Positions 3,956-49,268 of a DNA stretch of 64,000 nucleotides are shown here, one piece after another (position 1 is the stretch's first letter; every line of letters starts with the position of its first letter). The DNA is taken from the NCBI GenBank assembly GCA_018093385.1, contig GCA_018093385.1_4808.1; one strand, given 5' to 3'. Source of the stretch: a phage. A program made the translations under genes and the position numbers. The notes beneath the pieces were generated by a model. That model did no database searches and was not told the origin of the DNA. It saw nothing but the letters and a program-made list of their open reading frames with translations.

Positions 3956-4207
3956 TCACAGTTCATCTCCAGATTGCAAAATAAGACCCGCATAGAGGAT
4001 TGCCAAAGCCAAAGGTGCACCACCACCAGCCTCTCTATTCTCTTTGATTTGAAGAGTATCCTTAAGGAATTGCAACTGAACGTTGAATTCATTTTCAATT
4101 CCAAGAACTCCAGCCAATTCTTTTACAGAATCTGCATATGCCTTGTCTAGCAATTCTTTTGGTACTGTTAAAGTCAATTCATTTGCCATTTTCTTTCCAC
4201 TCCACAA
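3956..4207 (-). CDS. hypothetical protein (83 aa)
   Basis: ORF in track; co-oriented small-gene cluster. Confidence 0.4.
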   Translation of the reverse strand: MWSGKKMANELTLTVPKELLDKAYADSVKELAGVLGIENEFNVQLQFLKDTLQIKENREAGGGAPLALAILYAGLILQSGDEL

Positions 4208-4400
4208 ATGTGCTGCCGCTTGTTTCTCTATTTAGCAGGTATCTGCCGCGCATTCCATGAAGGCTGAATTCAACCGTCGATGGATTAGATTTTGAAAGCC
4301 ATATAGGCTGCCCGTCGAATGGACCGCCTACGCATGTATATTTCGCTTTTGGCTCACTCCTTTTGGGCTGTTTTGCCCGCTCTTTTATTGATAGTCTCAT
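4179..4400 (-). CDS. hypothetical protein (73 aa)
   Basis: ORF in track; overlaps neighbours by a few nt as in operons. Confidence 0.4.
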   Translation of the reverse strand: MRLSIKERAKQPKRSEPKAKYTCVGGPFDGQPIWLSKSNPSTVEFSLHGMRGRYLLNRETSGSTFVEWKENGK

Positions 4401-4615
4401 CAGTCTTCACCTTGAGATTCCAGACAAGTAAGGACAAGCCACGTCATCGGAAGAATCAAAACCAGAGAAATGAGGGACCAGATAGACCAGCACAAGATGA
4501 CAGACTTGAATGTGTGAACGTCGCCAAACGCAGCAGTAAAACAGAATCCCATTACAAATGCAATAGCTGTGGAATGGTTATCTATGGCTTTGATGGCACG
4601 GTCGATGAGTTTCAT
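4400..4615 (-). CDS. small membrane protein (71 aa)
   Basis: Two hydrophobic segments (FVMGFCFTAAF, ILCWSIWSLISLVLILP). Confidence 0.4.
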   Translation of the reverse strand: MKLIDRAIKAIDNHSTAIAFVMGFCFTAAFGDVHTFKSVILCWSIWSLISLVLILPMTWLVLTCLESQGED

Positions 4616-34317: not shown

Positions 34318-35295
34318 TTAAAAATACTCCATATCGGTAATATCACGGAAGCATTTATACAAAGCAGAGCGCGGCACATCAACAATGCCAAAGTTAAAGA
34401 ATTTATACGTTAGATATTTATCGCGATAGTTCTCGCGATTCTCCCAAAGCATTTTTCTCTCTGCCATAGGCATTGAACCAGCGGATACGCGGAAAGGAAT
34501 CATCTCACCTTTTTCATCCACATATTTTGGATTGACGACTACGAATGAGCCAAGGTGTCCTTTCGCAACTAAACCTTCAGCCTCTTTTGAACGCTTGGTG
34601 CGACCCAATTCGTCAATGAATGCTTCGTTGTTGTTCTCCATCATCTCAACGAAGTCTATGATCAATCCTTCTTCATCGGTCCACGGCTTGTCCTTCCACA
34701 CATCACGTGACTTCGGCGTCGCGCGGCCATGCTTGTATTTGCCCGTCCAAGACTTGCCATACAAGCCTTCATATCCAAGCTGGTCTGCTTCGATTTGCAT
34801 CGCCGCGTACTGTTCCATATTTTCGATGTTTCGATATTCGAGAGCGCGAAGGAATGGGCGTCGACCATGGTTGATGAGATGTTGATTAACTTCAGCAACT
34901 CTAGCTCGATAGTTTGCATAACGCTTTTCAAAAGGCAGATCAGGTTCGCTAAAGTCATCAAACACCCACCATGTAAAGTTAGTGATTGCATCAGTGTTCA
35001 TGCATGCAGTATAGGCCTGTTGCATGACGTTCTTGTCATTTGGATTGCCGTCGATTAGCTCTCCATCAAGTCCGTGAATTAATTCACCCAAGAAGAGGAA
35101 CTCTTTTTTGATTTGAATGTTGCGCAGCGCCATGCCGGACGTGCCCATTGGCAAGTTGTCATACGCCATTGCGCGTATGCCATCGACCTTGAATGACAAT
35201 CCGCAAGGCAGCGGCACGTCTTCGCCGCGCTCGATTATTTGCTTACGCTGGCAACCCTTCATTGGTTTTAATGCTTTGATTTCTCCTGCCATCAC
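34318..35295 (-). CDS. ATP-dependent DNA ligase
   Basis: Adenylation motif I FKVDGIRA (K-x-D-G-x-R); 325 aa. Confidence 0.8.
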   Translation of the reverse strand: MMAGEIKALKPMKGCQRKQIIERGEDVPLPCGLSFKVDGIRAMAYDNLPMGTSGMALRNIQIKKEFLFLGELIHGLDGELIDGNPNDKNVMQQAYTACMNTDAITNFTWWVFDDFSEPDLPFEKRYANYRARVAEVNQHLINHGRRPFLRALEYRNIENMEQYAAMQIEADQLGYEGLYGKSWTGKYKHGRATPKSRDVWKDKPWTDEEGLIIDFVEMMENNNEAFIDELGRTKRSKEAEGLVAKGHLGSFVVVNPKYVDEKGEMIPFRVSAGSMPMAERKMLWENRENYRDKYLTYKFFNFGIVDVPRSALYKCFRDITDMEYF

Positions 35296-35885
35296 TCAAA
35301 CTCCTTATTCATCACTTGTTCCAGCGCATAGGCGTAAGCCTGATCAGTCGATTTGATAAACGTGCCGTTGTACATGACGCCTTTGCGGTCTTTGATGTCT
35401 TCGTAGGCAGCTTGCGCACAGTCGGATAAGCGAAGGCCATAATCATGAGCTACGCCGGAAAGGTAATCGACTGCGGCCATGATGGTGACGTCAATATCCA
35501 TGGTTTGATTCTTGGCAATAGCATCACCAAGTCGTCCAAGGGTCTTTGCCAGGCGAAGGATAAATGAATGAGGGTGAGCGCCTTTATCAGCGCAACCGCC
35601 GCCATTAATGTTTTCGATTTCAGCACCGTTTTGCGCTGCCAGGATGGTCAACACGACAAGGCAATCGCCAATGTCGTCCTTAATTGCGGCTTGCAAGTCA
35701 CAGATGGCCTGCTCTGTATATCCAATTTCGGGGTCGAAGAACACAAGGTCATGGAGTTGATCAACGTGGTCGGTCAACTCCCCAAACTCGCTGATAAGCT
35801 TCGGGTATTGGTCCTTAAGGTCGCAACCTTGGATGATGTTACGGTCAGAAGCCCACTGGCGAATGTTTGCATAAATCTGGTTCAT
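35292..35885 (-). CDS. MazG-like nucleotide pyrophosphohydrolase
   Basis: KLISEFGELTDHV and IGDCLVVLTILAAQNG resemble the MazG EExxE / GD-x-L helix motifs. Confidence 0.45.
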   Translation of the reverse strand: MNQIYANIRQWASDRNIIQGCDLKDQYPKLISEFGELTDHVDQLHDLVFFDPEIGYTEQAICDLQAAIKDDIGDCLVVLTILAAQNGAEIENINGGGCADKGAHPHSFILRLAKTLGRLGDAIAKNQTMDIDVTIMAAVDYLSGVAHDYGLRLSDCAQAAYEDIKDRKGVMYNGTFIKSTDQAYAYALEQVMNKEFE

Positions 35886-43651: not shown

Positions 43652-43678
43652 AAAAAGGCCGCCCATTAGGACGGCCAC
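43652..43678 (-). terminator. candidate rho-independent terminator
   Basis: Imperfect hairpin GGCCGUCC-UAAU-GGGCGGCC followed by U-run on minus strand. Confidence 0.4.
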
Positions 43679-43692
43679 AGATTCACGATTCG

Positions 43693-44244
43693 TTATACAG
43701 TGTACGGAGTACCGTCTTGATTTAAGCGCACGATAAACTTCAAATCAACGCCGATGATTTCACGCGTATCAAAGATCACATAGTTGTAACGACGTTGACC
43801 AGCAATGTTCGGGTTGGTATGAGAGTCAGTTACAACTTCCTGTGCAACCTGAATACCTTCTTCGCTAAAGAACTTACGCCATTCAGCAAGTTCAGCGGCA
43901 GTCACGTGCATACCAAGGTGGCTGACCTGATTGTCATGCGCATCGATATATTCGATGTTTTCGTTAATCCAGTTGCAGCCCATTGTGTAGTCAAGGATTT
44001 CAAGCTCAAGAGGCTTACCAGCGCCGCCATCAGTACCGTTGCCAGCCTGATAGTTGAAGCGCAAGTCAGCTTCATTGGTGCAATCGTCGCGACGACCTTT
44101 AAAGTCATCAGCTTCAAATACGCGACCAGTAGCAACAACATGATCATGGAACCATTCTGTCAGGCCGATTTTAGCCAAGAAATCCTGTGCGCGCTGAGCA
44201 TCTGGAATTGACAGGGCGATTTGTTCAATTTTAAAATGTGGCAT
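43693..44244 (-). CDS. hypothetical protein, possible VOC/glyoxalase-like fold
   Basis: 183 aa; weak resemblance only (HLGMHV); assignment tentative. Confidence 0.3.
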   Translation of the reverse strand: MPHFKIEQIALSIPDAQRAQDFLAKIGLTEWFHDHVVATGRVFEADDFKGRRDDCTNEADLRFNYQAGNGTDGGAGKPLELEILDYTMGCNWINENIEYIDAHDNQVSHLGMHVTAAELAEWRKFFSEEGIQVAQEVVTDSHTNPNIAGQRRYNYVIFDTREIIGVDLKFIVRLNQDGTPYTV

Positions 44245-44340: not shown

Positions 44341-45024
44341 TTATTTACCAAATGGAATATCAGTACCAGACATAAAGCGCCATGCGCCTGTAATTAAGAT
44401 ATGGCGAATGAAGTCAGCAATTACTTGCGGCTCAGTCTCCAATCCATTCATCAATGCCTTTTTCTGGTATTCAGCGGCGTATTCAGGAGTCCAGCCGCGA
44501 GTCGCGCAAACTGCATCTTCAATCTGTTTAGACATGCCAGTGCCGCGCAACTTGTTAGGACTAATAGAGAATACCGTGATGCCGTACTTAGGCGTAAGTT
44601 CGTGAGCCATCTGCTTGCTGATCATAAGCGCAGCGGCCTTGGATGCATTATAACACAAGCTGGACGTCATAGGAATATGCGCAGCGTTGGAAACGATGTT
44701 GATCACAAAGCCTTTGTTGTCGATAAGACTTTTCAGCGCAGCCTGAGTCGTGTTAACGAAAGAGAATGCGTTGGTGTGCATAACGCGGTTAAACTCTTCA
44801 TAGTTTACATCTTCAAACCAATTGTTAGAGTTGACACCAGCACAGTTGATCAAGCCTTCAACATCATATGGGCTTAAAATTTCTTTCATCTGTTTAGCAT
44901 CGCGGACGTCATATCCGTATGCTGAATCGATGCCAAGCACGTTATGACCGTAAGCGCCAAGGGTGTCAAAAATAGATTTACCAAGACCGGAATTGGAACC
45001 TGTTACAACAATTACTTTTTTCAT
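44341..45024 (-). CDS. short-chain dehydrogenase/reductase (SDR)
   Basis: N-terminal TGSNSGLG dinucleotide-binding motif; catalytic Y-x-x-x-K (YNASK). Confidence 0.75.
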   Translation of the reverse strand: MKKVIVVTGSNSGLGKSIFDTLGAYGHNVLGIDSAYGYDVRDAKQMKEILSPYDVEGLINCAGVNSNNWFEDVNYEEFNRVMHTNAFSFVNTTQAALKSLIDNKGFVINIVSNAAHIPMTSSLCYNASKAAALMISKQMAHELTPKYGITVFSISPNKLRGTGMSKQIEDAVCATRGWTPEYAAEYQKKALMNGLETEPQVIADFIRHILITGAWRFMSGTDIPFGK

Positions 45025-45089
45025 TTATTTATCCTTTTTGGACTTCGTTTCGATGAGGTAAATATAACTCATCGAAACGCACAAGTAAA

Positions 45090-45965
45090 CTATTTATTGA
45101 AATTAATATTATGGGTGTTTACAAGACGTTCACACATGGCGCTATAAACACCATCGTCGTGTATTGAGTCTTCGTGCTTCAGGCCGCTGATTGCGAAGCG
45201 TGTAAGCTTGACAATCTTAAGCTCGAACAGATGCCACATGTGGTAGTCTTCCGGTGTTTTCAGCGTCACGCCATTAGGGAACAGTACCTGCATAACCTGA
45301 CCTACCATCACAGCGTTATCGCCATAGACAGCGTTGCGCTCACGGAAGGTCGCGGCCATCGCATCAAGAATATCGGCGGCGGTTGCTGGGCCTTGTGGTT
45401 CAACTTCAACAACTTTAGTCTCTTCTTTCCCTGTTGCGCTTGGATCAACTGCTAATTGCTGCACCATTTCACCTGCCTTGCAAAGATTAAATGTAAAAGC
45501 GATTTTATTTTGAGCAACGGAATTATAATACAAGGCTTCATCTTGCATCGCCGCGAGTACGTCTTGTCGGTCGTCGAATACATTAATGATTCGATAATCG
45601 CCGTGCCGCAAAGCGTGCGATAGCCATCCAGATTTCATAATAGTTGATGGACGTTTGTCGCCAGAGTCTCTCATCTTGATTGTAAATTCATCAAAAGGGA
45701 AAACATTGTCCAGACGTTCAAAAGTCACTTGTCTGTATTTTTCTGGCCTTGCAGTCCAATATTCAACCGCCTCACCGCGAAGAGATGCCGACTCTACTGC
45801 TGATGCAATGTGAGGATAGAACTGATCATAACCAATACCGCTGTGATAGTCATCATAGTCTGACAACGGACCTGCCACCTTGATGCGGTCTAAGCGCCAA
45901 CGGTCATCAAACAGCGTTCCGTCAAGGTCGAATACGTTTAAGATTTCGCTGTTTTTAATGCTCAT
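45090..45965 (-). CDS. HAD-family phosphatase fused to a C-terminal nucleotide-metabolism-associated domain
   Basis: HAD motif I FDLDGTLFD near N-terminus; C-terminal FRERNAVYGDNAVMVGQ ... EDSIHDDGVY resembles MazG-like/DUF1599-type helical domains (from memory). Confidence 0.5.
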   Translation of the reverse strand: MSIKNSEILNVFDLDGTLFDDRWRLDRIKVAGPLSDYDDYHSGIGYDQFYPHIASAVESASLRGEAVEYWTARPEKYRQVTFERLDNVFPFDEFTIKMRDSGDKRPSTIMKSGWLSHALRHGDYRIINVFDDRQDVLAAMQDEALYYNSVAQNKIAFTFNLCKAGEMVQQLAVDPSATGKEETKVVEVEPQGPATAADILDAMAATFRERNAVYGDNAVMVGQVMQVLFPNGVTLKTPEDYHMWHLFELKIVKLTRFAISGLKHEDSIHDDGVYSAMCERLVNTHNINFNK

Positions 45966-46765
45966 CCTTTTGATACTCCATCTTTAGCAACTGGATTGTT
46001 GGTGATTGGCATTGCACTCCAAAACTGGATGCGCAACTCTTCTTGCTGTGCCGTGGTATCCATCCAATCACGATACCAAGGGCAATGGGCTTTGCCATGA
46101 CGAGGAAACGCGCACTTACCCATACCGATGCACTGGGGCTGTAGTAAAGGATTGGCCCACGGGTGCACCTTAAGGACTTCCGCAACCATTGCACGGAATA
46201 CTTCTTGATACTCGCCTTGAGTACGCGTGCACAAGCGGTTAGAGGCCATTTGTTGCAGAGTGCGCAAGTTGAACTTTGCCATGATATGCGTTTGCATATT
46301 AGAAGGCAACACGGCACGTGCATCTTGAATCTCTGCGCCAGCCGCGCGAAGTTCTTGGTATAGGGCGTCAATGGTTGCCATTGCATCATCCCATTTCTCT
46401 GCCAGTTCAGCAGCCTTCTCGTCATGACGAGTCCATCCCTTTGGATCATCCTCTGGGTAAGTAAATTTGGCAGGACGAATCGCATCAAATGCTGACGACT
46501 CCTGAGCGCGGCTTGTGCGTTCTTGATATGCACCTGTGCGTGTGCGCACCATCTGATGAGTCATATTCTTTGATACATCAGTGATGTCAAAGATATAGTC
46601 CACAAAGTCAAAAGGCGACTTGATTGTATCAAGCATGTAGCGCCAGTGCTCTTGCTTCTCTGATTCTGTCATCTCAGAGACTGGCTTACCAGTCATGCGC
46701 GTGTTCTTTGTTTCCAGCAAAAGGTCAAGTGCATCTTGGGTGTATCGAATTAATTCAACTTTCAT
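45962..46765 (-). CDS. ThyX-like flavin-dependent thymidylate synthase homolog (divergent)
   Basis: THQMVRTRTGAYQERTS parallels the ThyX motif RHR-x7/8-S but with RTR; 267 aa. Confidence 0.55.
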   Translation of the reverse strand: MKVELIRYTQDALDLLLETKNTRMTGKPVSEMTESEKQEHWRYMLDTIKSPFDFVDYIFDITDVSKNMTHQMVRTRTGAYQERTSRAQESSAFDAIRPAKFTYPEDDPKGWTRHDEKAAELAEKWDDAMATIDALYQELRAAGAEIQDARAVLPSNMQTHIMAKFNLRTLQQMASNRLCTRTQGEYQEVFRAMVAEVLKVHPWANPLLQPQCIGMGKCAFPRHGKAHCPWYRDWMDTTAQQEELRIQFWSAMPITNNPVAKDGVSKG

Positions 46766-46778
46766 TTTAATTATCCTA

Positions 46779-47225
46779 TTAACGGTAATTCACTAGTTGC
46801 TGATCACCAGAGAAGGTGCAATGATAAACGAATTGTGCGTTATAAAGCAACTGAAAACTTTTCTTTGGTTCATTATTAGAACTCATTGATGTAAAGATTT
46901 CTGCACCAGAACGGTTTTCACCAATCAGGTTAATAAAGCCGCCAGTTGAACGAGGCTGAACGAAAGTGAAACGCTGCATCCACGGAGTCCGGTTGGCACC
47001 TTTTCCGGTGAATCCCTGAATCTGAATATTCAGACCTTCTTGCTCGTTCACACCGATGTAAGTGGTAATTGTTGCGCCAGTCGTCGCTGCGGTCTTGCCG
47101 TCCATCGCTTCGCAATCGTAAACAGCGATTGAATCGGAAGTACGGACAGCGGCTTCAGTCGCTTCCATATACATGGTTCCGAGAATAGCAGTCGCGGCAA
47201 GCGCGATTCCAGTGATGCGTTTCAT
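46779..47225 (-). CDS. secreted/periplasmic protein
   Basis: Signal peptide-like MKRITGIALAATAILGTMYMEATEAA. Confidence 0.45.
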   Translation of the reverse strand: MKRITGIALAATAILGTMYMEATEAAVRTSDSIAVYDCEAMDGKTAATTGATITTYIGVNEQEGLNIQIQGFTGKGANRTPWMQRFTFVQPRSTGGFINLIGENRSGAEIFTSMSSNNEPKKSFQLLYNAQFVYHCTFSGDQQLVNYR

Positions 47226-47290: not shown

Positions 47291-48286
47291 TTATTTATTA
47301 GCAATATAAGCAAATTTTTGATAGTTATTTGCTTTGATGAGTTTTTCAACTTCAGCAAGGTCATGAGCGACGTCATCAAGCAAAATGTTTCGCCAAGTAG
47401 CGAATCGACCGACACTAAATACGTTCAAATCCATAGTCAACTGGAGCAGTAAGGCGTGGCGCAAGTCTTTCGGAATGTCGACAATTTTGCCATACTTCTG
47501 GTCAACCTTTTCAACTTCTTCCAAAGAGATGTCATTCCATGAAAGACCAAAAGCGGTAAGAACTTCATCCACTTCTGCACGCAGCTTCATGTCGCGATAA
47601 CGGGTAATGCCGCCAGCGGCTTCAACTGCTGCCGCGCTGACGCTTACCAATGGAATTGTTTCAATGATCAGCGTGTCACCAGTGATTGATGCGCGGTAAG
47701 TCCTTACAGAATAGTCAGGGAAGTAAATTGTTTGATAAAGTTCACACTTGCGCTTAATCTTAAAACGATAAACGCGAATATTTGCCTTATCAAACGAGAA
47801 GTCGAGCTTTTGATCAATACCAGCAAGCTTCATCATGACTGGCAGCGGCGATGTGTTGATGATTGGCGTCTCGCTATAGCCGCAAAGCGTGTCGACCGGA
47901 GTATTAAAGAATATACGGTCACCCAGTTTATCGACAAGTTGATCATAAAAGTCATCCGGCGCTATGTAGCGCGTAGCAGTTTGAAGCTTCATGATTGAGC
48001 GGCTGCCAAACTGGTTGGTGACTTTCATAGAGTACATATTGGCAAGGTTAATCGGGCAGTGGCCGTGATAGTAGTTGCCACGAAAATACACAGCCTTATC
48101 GACTGTCACGGCCTTAAAGGGGATTCCGGTAATACGGCTTACTTCTTCGCCGCGAAATCGTAGCAGCGCCTTGTGCTGCGCGACGCGTTCGCCTGCTTCG
48201 TACACAATAGAGTTCGGAAAGTGACAAGCCGTGATAAGTCCTGCCAGTCCGCCGCCGATAATCATTACAGGTTGTTTCATGTTCAT
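47291..48286 (-). CDS. FAD/NAD(P)-binding oxidoreductase
   Basis: N-terminal Rossmann motif VMIIGGGLAGLITA (GxGxxG). Confidence 0.55.
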   Translation of the reverse strand: MNMKQPVMIIGGGLAGLITACHFPNSIVYEAGERVAQHKALLRFRGEEVSRITGIPFKAVTVDKAVYFRGNYYHGHCPINLANMYSMKVTNQFGSRSIMKLQTATRYIAPDDFYDQLVDKLGDRIFFNTPVDTLCGYSETPIINTSPLPVMMKLAGIDQKLDFSFDKANIRVYRFKIKRKCELYQTIYFPDYSVRTYRASITGDTLIIETIPLVSVSAAAVEAAGGITRYRDMKLRAEVDEVLTAFGLSWNDISLEEVEKVDQKYGKIVDIPKDLRHALLLQLTMDLNVFSVGRFATWRNILLDDVAHDLAEVEKLIKANNYQKFAYIANK

Positions 48287-48364: not shown

Positions 48365-48391
48365 AAAAAAGACCCACAACTAGTGTGGGTC
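48365..48391 (-). terminator. rho-independent terminator
   Basis: GACCCACA-ACTAGT-TGTGGGTC hairpin with U-run on minus strand. Confidence 0.6.
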
Positions 48392-48419: not shown

Positions 48420-49268
48420 TTATTCTGCTTGATCGTCGTGCTCTTCGGCATCTGCTTCGGATTCAACATCGATGAACTCGATGTGGCCCATCTCTTCCAG
48501 TTTGCTCAGGTAAGAGCGAACTGAAGCGCCAAACAGCTGATCTTTAACTTTTTCACCCAGCTCGTCGATAGACTGCGGCTGACCGATTTCACCTTCTTTG
48601 ATCGCAGCCAGTACGCGACCACGGGTGGAATGTTCTTGCGGCTGGCTCAGGCCGTTTCCGGTGTAAACAAAGTGAGTTGCTTTAGCGCGACGCTGACCAT
48701 TAGCTTTCTTGGCGGCTTTACGCTCTGCAATCGCTTTGCGACGCTCTTCAGCTTCTTTCTTACGCTGTTCTTTCTGTTGTTCTGCAGCTTCTTTCGCCGC
48801 GATCTTAGCAGCTTCACGCTCTGCCTTGCGTTTCGCTTTCGCTTCTTCTTTAGCCTTTTCTTTTTCGGCTTTCGCTTCTGCACGGGCCTGATCACGTTCA
48901 GCCTTTTTCGCCGCAGCTTGTTCAGCTTTCAGGCGCTTGGCTTCTTCTTTCGCCTTTGCCTTTTCAATTTCTTTAGCGGCTTTAGCGGCTTCACGCTCTG
49001 CCTTCTTAGCAGCAGCCTTTTCAGCACGCTCTGCAGCCTTCTTAGCGGCTTCTTCAGCACGCTTCTGAGCCTTCTCGTCAGCAGCCTGCTTGCGTTTCAG
49101 CGCAGCTTCTTCACGCTTGGCTTGTTTTTCCTGCTCACGCTTCTGGCGTTTTTCTTCGGCTTCTTTCTTTTTAGCCAGGCGTTTTTCTTCAGCCACGCGA
49201 CGACGTTCTGCTGCGGCTGCTTGTTTTTCTTCTTTAGATAATACTTTGATTGCTTCGGCCATATTCAC
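48420..49268 (-). CDS. Lys/Ala/Glu-rich low-complexity protein with globular C-terminal domain
   Basis: ~200 aa of KAAEKAAKE-type repeats followed by a non-repetitive ~80 aa C-terminus. Confidence 0.5.
   Translation of the reverse strand: MNMAEAIKVLSKEEKQAAAAERRRVAEEKRLAKKKEAEEKRQKREQEKQAKREEAALKRKQAADEKAQKRAEEAAKKAAERAEKAAAKKAEREAAKAAKEIEKAKAKEEAKRLKAEQAAAKKAERDQARAEAKAEKEKAKEEAKAKRKAEREAAKIAAKEAAEQQKEQRKKEAEERRKAIAERKAAKKANGQRRAKATHFVYTGNGLSQPQEHSTRGRVLAAIKEGEIGQPQSIDELGEKVKDQLFGASVRSYLSKLEEMGHIEFIDVESEADAEEHDDQAE

Follow-up and report, generated by a model that had tools for sequence, protein, structure and literature searches.

For the N-terminal, HAD half of the protein encoded by the gene described here, the closest characterised relatives are T4 Pnkp, through its C-terminal 3'-phosphatase domain (PseT; PDB 1ltq, 5uj0), and Pnkp1 from the Pnkp1/Rnl/Hen1 system of bacterial RNA repair (4xrp, 4xru), with which it has the HAD fold and the DxDxT nucleophile motif in common. 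The gene lies at positions 45090 to 45965, on the minus strand, of a 64,000-nucleotide stretch of phage DNA (contig GCA_018093385.1_4808.1 of GenBank assembly GCA_018093385.1), referred to below as the window. Compared with T4 Pnkp, its protein lacks a kinase domain, has Ser107 in place of Asp254 and carries an extra beta-hairpin after the HAD core; unlike both T4 Pnkp and Pnkp1, it ends in an apparent DUF6378 domain, and the gene is coupled to ThyX rather than to an RNA ligase. Class B/C bacterial acid phosphatases (AphA), plant VSP and HAD nucleotidases ranked among the best structural and profile matches after Pnkp; they differ in being periplasmic or secreted and in their cap elements, and their profile E-values were only 1e-2 to 1e-4. 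AphA cleaves both 5'- and 3'-nucleotides. We found that the window gene joins a HAD phosphatase with an intact catalytic set to a highly conserved helical module, and we tentatively propose that the two modules work together with the phage ThyX on deoxypyrimidine nucleotides.

The window is a Wifcevirus, an Escherichia coli myophage akin to the Pseudomonas PB1-like phages, and its DNA is 96–97% identical to the E. coli Wifcevirus phages vB_EcoM_SP13, F13, WFC and BASEL Bas98-101. Members of Wifcevirus multiply with unusual speed and are resistant to restriction systems, and PB1-like phages are among those most used in Pseudomonas therapy. A single open reading frame (ORF) of 291 amino acids (aa) with an ATG start spans the gene; the start codon and the TGA stop codon of the ThyX gene upstream of it overlap in the sequence ATGA (45962–45965). 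The gene is clearly real and not a chance ORF, because the protein matched phrog_4889 over both halves (E 2e-117), had 344 homologues at E ≤ 1e-3, many of them with 35–45% identity across ~96% of its length, and yielded an AlphaFold2 (AF2) model, with 76 homologues as input, at a mean predicted local distance difference test (pLDDT) score of 90.4. A tblastn search with the protein returned 373 phage records, chiefly from Pseudomonas PB1-like phages. The motifs quoted in a preliminary description of this ORF, which had proposed a HAD phosphatase fused to a MazG/DUF1599-like helical domain, were all in place: FDLDGTLFD at residues 12–20, FRERNAVYGDNAVMVGQ at 207–223 and EDSIHDDGVYSAM at 265–277. 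The proposed two-domain layout was also borne out by the AF2 model:

45090..45965, minus strand: whole gene, predicted HAD phosphatase, linker and DUF6378 domain, 291 aa (ORF; phrog_4889; AF2)
45516..45944, minus strand: predicted HAD phosphatase core of the T4 Pnkp 3'-phosphatase type, residues about 8–150 (PF25109 HAD_PNKP; Foldseek 5uj0; PDB profile match)
45405..45500, minus strand: beta-hairpin extension after the HAD core, residues 156–187 (DSSP strands 156–163, 166–174 and 182–187)
45123..45380, minus strand: predicted four-helix DUF6378 domain, residues 196–281 (invariant columns; PF19905 matches of close homologues; signature of AP22 ORF87; AF2 pLDDT 88)

The end of the hairpin merges into the linker (about residues 175–195), which was modelled at lower confidence (pLDDT about 70–76 over residues 171–210). 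The helical domain measures about 86 aa, rather than the ~120 aa first given for it.

The N-terminal half looks like a complete and catalytically competent HAD phosphatase of the T4 Pnkp 3'-phosphatase type. Pfam HAD_PNKP (PF25109) matched residues 11–145 (34.5 bits against a cutoff of 27.6, E 2.7e-8), and the model showed a Rossmannoid alpha/beta core fold with pLDDT >90 across the HAD core. Foldseek searches of the PDB returned HAD phosphatases at probability 1.00; the best of them included Pnkp1 and the 3'-phosphatase domain of T4 Pnkp (5uj0, TMt 0.71), and a profile of N-terminal halves matched Pnkp1 (E 1.8e-9) and T4 Pnkp (4e-9) in the same database. No NCBIfam model matched either half of the protein. 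HAD motif I, already recognised in the preliminary description, reads D13-L-D15-G-T17, with D13 and D15 invariant in the 76 homologues and in split forms. Motifs II (T71), III (K111) and IV (D131-D132), the lack of which had been named as part of a possible refutation, were found and are likewise invariant, aligning to S211, K258 and D277-D278 of T4 Pnkp.

The correspondence with T4 Pnkp extends beyond the HAD motifs. In the profile alignment, D13/D15 of the window protein pair with T4 Pnkp D165/D167, R24 with R176, D47 with D187, T71/R73 with S211/R213, R99 with R246, K111 with K258 and D131/D132/R133 with D277/D278/R279; Ser107 takes the position of T4 D254. In mutagenesis of T4 Pnkp, R176, D187, R213, R246, D254 and R279 were reportedly found by the Shuman laboratory to be essential for the phosphatase. 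Five of the six Pnkp-specific residues outside the HAD motifs are conserved (R24, D47, R73, R99 and R133), D254 being the one replaced. All mapped catalytic residues but R133 were invariant in the 76 fused homologues (R133 was at least 90% conserved), and they were retained in 54–57 of the 57 separately encoded HAD ORFs.

Wifcevirus records label the gene 'hypothetical' or 'polynucleotide kinase/phosphorylase', and PHROG and GenBank entries call the product 'polynucleotide kinase/phosphorylase' or '3'-phosphatase, 5'-polynucleotide kinase'. That these labels are right, and the protein is a bifunctional polynucleotide kinase/phosphatase, is extremely improbable. No P-loop or kinase domain was found in the 291-aa sequence by Pfam or in the AF2 model, and the T4 Pnkp and phrog_505 profiles were matched over their phosphatase part alone (positions 164–292 of 295). 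Thus, 'kinase' is an over-annotation; the rest of the protein is the helical domain, and the domain analysis refutes the kinase half of the label.

By itself, the C-terminal domain had no Pfam match, even at E ≤ 1, and its family was recognised through its relatives. When 46 close homologues (55–67% identity to the window domain) were checked against PF19905 (DUF6378, a family of uncharacterised, mostly phage proteins), 43 matched at a relaxed E ≤ 10, mostly just under the cutoff, with a best E of 3.9e-6. ORF87 of Acinetobacter phage AP22 is a bona fide member (E 7.5e-8, 33 bits against a cutoff of 27.1), and it has R-x3-YG, K-x2-R and H-x-D-S-x-H-D-x3-Y in common with the window domain at equal spacing. 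Because of these common signatures we assign the window domain, at the sequence level, to a subfamily of DUF6378 that is distinguished by an invariant FPxGV loop and HLFEL helix. In ORF87 (locus L177, 44907–45707), DUF6378 is fused to an N-terminal region that is unrelated to the window protein's, internally duplicated and without a Pfam match; DUF6378 therefore has other partners outside the window subfamily. Inside it, HAD_PNKP was the only partner domain (42 members of unusual length).

The modelled domain consists of four helices (residues 196–214, 217–228, 238–259 and 265–281). About 15 polar residues are invariant, among them N211, Y214, K253, R256, H264, D266, S267, D270 and Y274, as is F229-P230-x-G232. 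The invariant Asn, Tyr, Lys, Arg, His and Asp residues resemble a site that binds a nucleotide or phosphate/metal. When 1.84 billion representative proteins were scanned, homologues of the domain fell into 2083 clusters, and there were hundreds of free-standing homologues of about 95–100 aa at about 60–75% identity. The 150 matches listed were all close relatives and included no bridge to other families. In the PDB, neither the sequence alone nor any of three profiles retrieved a solved structure related to the helical domain, and no function was assigned to DUF6378 in the literature searched.

The gene lies within the replication module of the phage, near exonuclease and PolIII-alpha genes, with the following features around it:

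48420..49268, minus strand: 282-aa protein, mostly Lys/Ala/Glu-rich low-complexity repeats (AAKKAAERAEKAAAKK...), just upstream of the six-gene block
48371..48391, minus strand: terminator-like hairpin upstream of the six-gene block
47291..48286, minus strand: first gene of the apparent operon, for a 331-aa protein that begins with a dinucleotide-binding region (GxGxxG motif near the N-terminus; phrog_4828; conserved position)
46779..47225, minus strand: 148-aa protein between the 331-aa gene and ThyX, with a signal-peptide-like N-terminus (no family match)
45962..46765, minus strand: divergent ThyX (Pfam Thy1, E 1.2e-30; NCBIfam thyX, 83.1 bits against an equivalog cutoff of 87.9; alignment to T. 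maritima ThyX)
45046..45079, minus strand: stable RNA hairpin with a 12-bp perfect stem and no U-tract, in the 65-nt spacer between the gene and SDR (dG -21.7 kcal/mol, z -4.4)
44341..45024, minus strand: SDR (FabG-like), directly downstream (Pfam adh_short, E 2.6e-31; after DUF6378 in every IMG/VR locus examined)
43693..44244, minus strand: VOC/glyoxalase-like protein, 183 aa, last gene of the apparent operon (weak Glyoxalase_4 match, E 0.004; conserved position)
43657..43676, minus strand: terminator-like hairpin between the VOC-like and exonuclease genes (8 pairs, 7 of them GC, with a T-run)

The two terminator-like hairpins bracket six genes (331-aa, 148-aa, ThyX, HAD-DUF6378, SDR and VOC-like), which suggests that the block is one transcription unit, apart from the exonuclease and PolIII-alpha genes. 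None of 200 shuffles was as stable as the hairpin in the spacer before SDR. Through the ATGA overlap, ThyX is translationally coupled to the gene. Relative to T. maritima ThyX, this protein carries H53F, H79T, S88T and Y91A and retains R78, R80, E86, R90, R147 and R174; all arginines binding deoxyuridine monophosphate (dUMP) are kept. Its divergence may matter given the thymidine hypermodification in related Pbunavirus phages. Sequence searches of Pfam, NCBIfam and the PDB gave no match to the 331-aa protein. Its identity to gp66 of Pbunavirus DP1 is 41%, and it stands upstream of ThyX in a large majority of the related loci that are long enough (57 with a match over at least 60% of its length). 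A relationship to UDP-galactopyranose mutase was not supported (BLASTP against E. coli Glf, E 1.7). For the 148-aa protein, phmmer found no homologue in non-Wifcevirus loci.

We examined how the two modules are arranged in 80 IMG/VR loci chosen by DUF6378 similarity, all from related phages. The gene order was always the same: 331-aa GxGxxG protein, ThyX, HAD, DUF6378, SDR, VOC-like, DnaQ-like exonuclease and PolIII-alpha. In 25 loci HAD and DUF6378 formed one fused gene and in 52 they were neighbouring separate genes; 2 loci had no HAD gene next to DUF6378, and 1 lay at a contig end. Because the halves are either fused or adjacent in nearly all of these loci, the fusion reflects an obligate functional pair. 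ThyX lay upstream in every locus extending far enough, and also in Pbunavirus. In locus L001, 4-nt overlaps link ThyX, HAD, DUF6378 and SDR. The metagenomic phage contigs of two free-standing homologues carried ThyX, HAD_PNKP (160 aa), DUF6378 (100 aa), SDR, a ~157-aa protein, an RNase_T exonuclease and PolIII-alpha. In some metagenomic relatives (L006–L010, about 4160–4541), a gene resembling that of T4 endonuclease V (Pfam Pyr_excise) is inserted between ThyX and HAD.

The association with ThyX extends to other phages. Pbunavirus DP1 has gp66, ThyX and HAD-DUF6378, and the SDR and VOC-like genes are absent there; its exonuclease gene directly follows the HAD-DUF6378 gene (L093, 8017–8093). 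In Rhizobium phage TM30 the HAD-DUF6378 gene sits between ThyX and dUTPase/RNR, and in a Faecalibacterium phage DUF6378 adjoins ThyX.

DUF6378 is the most conserved element of the block. Median identities to the window proteins over the non-Wifcevirus loci were 67% for DUF6378, 53% for the VOC-like protein, 48% for SDR, 45% for ThyX, 39% for the exonuclease, 38% for PolIII-alpha, 37% for the GxGxxG protein and 31% for HAD; choosing the loci by DUF6378 similarity favours DUF6378 in this comparison, and the gap is large nonetheless. The family is essentially restricted to phages, because a scan of the genomes of 185,579 species of bacteria and archaea found the domain on just five short contigs. 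Two very short contigs of Xanthomonas pisi DSM 18956 (L178 and L181; 637 and 381 bp) have 96–100% protein identity to the window gene and are probably phage DNA contamination of the assembly.

The C-terminal half had been likened to MazG/DUF1599-type domains, and we considered the two parts of that comparison separately. DUF1599/Nmad1 (PF07659) resembles the window domain in size (~90 aa), in its colinear (K/R)N-x2-YG, K-x2-R and D-(S/T)-x2-D-x3-Y signatures and in adjoining ThyX in some viruses, as in the dUTPase-ThyX-DUF1599 block of Asgard viruses. Nmad domains are named for their association with nucleotide modification. No match to PF07659 was found for the window domain or the 46 homologues, even at E ≤ 10. 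We built a DUF1599 profile from a Streptococcus phage protein (PF07659, E 4.6e-8); broadening it by homologue search and IMG/VR scan gave only close Streptococcus-prophage relatives (at least 63% identity), and the power of profile-profile comparison is low because only such relatives were available. Aligned with hhalign, DUF6378 and DUF1599 gave E 0.004–0.006 over 75–76 colinear columns, pairing the (K/R)N-x2-YG and D-(S/T)-x2-D-x3-Y motifs. Of 80 column-shuffled profiles (mean 11.8, sd 2.65), none reached the real score; of 80 shuffled in blocks, 2 did, and the reversed profile scored 20.7 against the real 21.9.

Reciprocal searches with hidden Markov models (HMMs) agreed: the DUF1599 HMM placed DUF6378 ORFs at 30 of the top 33 positions (6498 ORFs) and the top 30 of the DUF6378 HMM (3869 ORFs) consisted entirely of DUF1599 ORFs, at scores of only 7–10 bits (E 0.1–0.2). 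Foldseek against BFVD returned one Nmad1 protein (E 0.02, TM 0.5), and in a joint alignment Y214, D266, D270 and Y274 were invariant in both families. Because several individually weak lines agree, a distant relationship between DUF6378 and Nmad1/DUF1599 is likely rather than proven.

The MazG part of the comparison fared differently. No MazG-clan family in Pfam matched the window domain or its 46 homologues, PDB searches with two domain profiles gave no MazG-type match, and the helical domain had no fold match to solved MazG, dUTPase or HisE structures. The phage has a separate MazG-like gene, followed by a ligase gene:

35292..35885, minus strand: MazG-like pyrophosphatase, 197 aa (weak Pfam MazG match)
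34318..35295, minus strand: ATP-dependent DNA ligase, directly downstream of, and overlapping, the MazG-like gene

Against this MazG-like protein, hhalign gave DUF6378 E 0.05 over 14 columns. DUF6378 as the MazG of this phage was rejected, the genome's own MazG-like gene being separate and dissimilar. The D-x3-D-x3-Y and K-x2-R motifs may resemble the metal-binding last helix of MazG/DCTPP1, and the all-alpha nucleoside triphosphate (NTP) pyrophosphatases of MazG type would be similar in being small helical domains with conserved acidic residues one helical turn apart followed by a Tyr. A MazG-type C-terminus would act as an NTP pyrophosphatase, the fusion converting a deoxynucleoside triphosphate to the monophosphate (dNMP) and then to the deoxynucleoside, keeping the base out of phage DNA. 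The four-helix form of the domain is in keeping with such an enzyme, and the missing MazG-clan match in every search speaks against it; we regard it as distinctly unlikely. The preliminary interpretation was supported in part: the HAD phosphatase stood, kinship with DUF1599 was found weakly yet consistently, and no test upheld the likeness to MazG.

The explanation we favour, with some reserve, is that of a two-module processing phosphatase working with the phage ThyX on deoxypyrimidine nucleotides. The first module (about residues 8–150) would be a Mg-dependent HAD phosphomonoesterase of the T4 Pnkp 3'-phosphatase type, with Asp13 as predicted nucleophile, Asp15 as acid/base, Thr71 and Lys111 binding phosphate and Asp131/Asp132 binding metal. 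The second module (196–281), DUF6378, would pick the substrate or carry out a second hydrolytic step on it, and the HAD module would then take off a phosphate. The pair would in this way shape or process a specific deoxynucleotide in a thymidylate or modified-thymidine pathway. We infer the substrate, any catalysis by DUF6378 and the action on free nucleotides rather than on DNA.

Several observations weigh against this explanation. The nearest characterised HAD relatives, T4 Pnkp and Pnkp1, act on nucleic-acid 3'-phosphate ends, not on 5'-dNMPs. A phosphatase of dUMP or deoxythymidine monophosphate would reverse the work of the adjoining ThyX. A separate MazG-like pyrophosphatase is already present in the phage, and no similarity of DUF6378 to any known nucleotide hydrolase was detected. 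The synteny of the 80 loci may be inherited rather than independently selected, because all come from related phages, and the Nmad1 genes of Streptococcus prophages are not near ThyX or HAD genes.

Work on related phages points to another possible role. The DNA of the Pbunavirus phages F8 and 14-1 contains a hypermodified thymidine at TG, replacing ~1/4 of T; the modified nucleosides (F8, 362 Da; 14-1, 390 Da) were described as tetrose sugar-alcohol and aldopentose derivatives, and according to the authors these phages lack the genes earlier implicated in such modification (PMC12191111, 2025 preprint). The window gene may serve a DNA-level step of thymidine hypermodification, a role we rate as possible though rather unlikely. 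The Pnkp-type phosphatase would dephosphorylate an intermediate on phage DNA, for example phosphomethyl-deoxyuridine or an adduct whose sugar phosphate comes from erythrose-4-P or ribose-5-P. The Nmad1-like DUF6378 would recognise the modified base, and the ThyX-like, FAD-like, SDR and VOC-like neighbours would perform other steps.

Pbunavirus retains gp66 (FAD-like), ThyX and HAD-DUF6378 alongside its modified thymidine, and its ThyX-like counterpart in the window is divergent at the four positions given above and below the NCBIfam equivalog cutoff. The Pnkp-type family is built for polynucleotide substrates, and the name of the Nmad domains fits as well. In the Wifcevirus genome neither a glycosyltransferase, a base kinase nor any other cluster of enzymes is annotated, which leaves the six-gene apparent operon as its main block of enzyme-like genes. 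Against a hypermodification role, there is no direct tie between gene and modification, and the modified DNA was reported for Pbunavirus, whereas the block also occurs in Wifcevirus and many metagenomic relatives. The SDR and VOC-like genes are missing from the Pbunavirus locus, no kinase is evident to make a phosphorylated DNA intermediate, and this ThyX, with its full set of dUMP-binding arginines, could be a normal thymidylate synthase.

A wider form of the same idea, to which we give little weight, is that the six-gene block is the missing thymidine-hypermodification operon of the PB1-like phages, suspected also in Wifcevirus. It is similarly doubtful that, within such an operon, the phosphatase takes the phosphate off an intermediate of sugar-phosphate or phosphomethyl type and the DUF6378/Nmad1-like module reads the modified base or acts on it as a catalyst. 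If the operon reading were true, these phages would make hypermodified thymidine by a new route, without any of the known enzymes (a ThyA-type hydroxymethylase, a 5-HMUDK kinase and an aGPT-Pplase).

The likeness to T4 Pnkp and Pnkp1, both end-healing enzymes, also raises the healing of DNA or RNA 3' ends, which, like the DNA-level modification step, is a serious rival though we think it unlikely. Here 3'-phosphates left by host nucleases or apurinic/apyrimidinic lyases would be removed for the phage polymerase or the ATP-dependent ligase, and DUF6378 would be a nucleic-acid-binding or regulatory module replacing the T4 kinase domain. Nearly all T4 phosphatase residues are retained in the window protein, whose gene sits in the replication module beside the exonuclease and PolIII-alpha genes; the phage has an ATP-dependent DNA ligase, and some relatives carry the Pyr_excise gene between ThyX and HAD. 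Yet breaks with 5'-OH and 3'-phosphate ends could not be sealed, because there is no 5'-kinase, and translational coupling is to ThyX and SDR rather than to the ligase ~10 kb off. The extreme conservation of DUF6378 and its His/Asp-rich invariant residues would also suit a ligand-binding or catalytic site better than a generic DNA binder.

Relabelling the gene away from polynucleotide kinase matters for annotation. It joins an intact phosphatase to the module that is best conserved in the whole replication block, is tightly coupled to a divergent ThyX and is nearly confined to phages. Its substrate would place DUF6378, and perhaps DUF1599/Nmad1, both of them widespread families, in thymidylate metabolism, or open a new pathway of DNA hypermodification.

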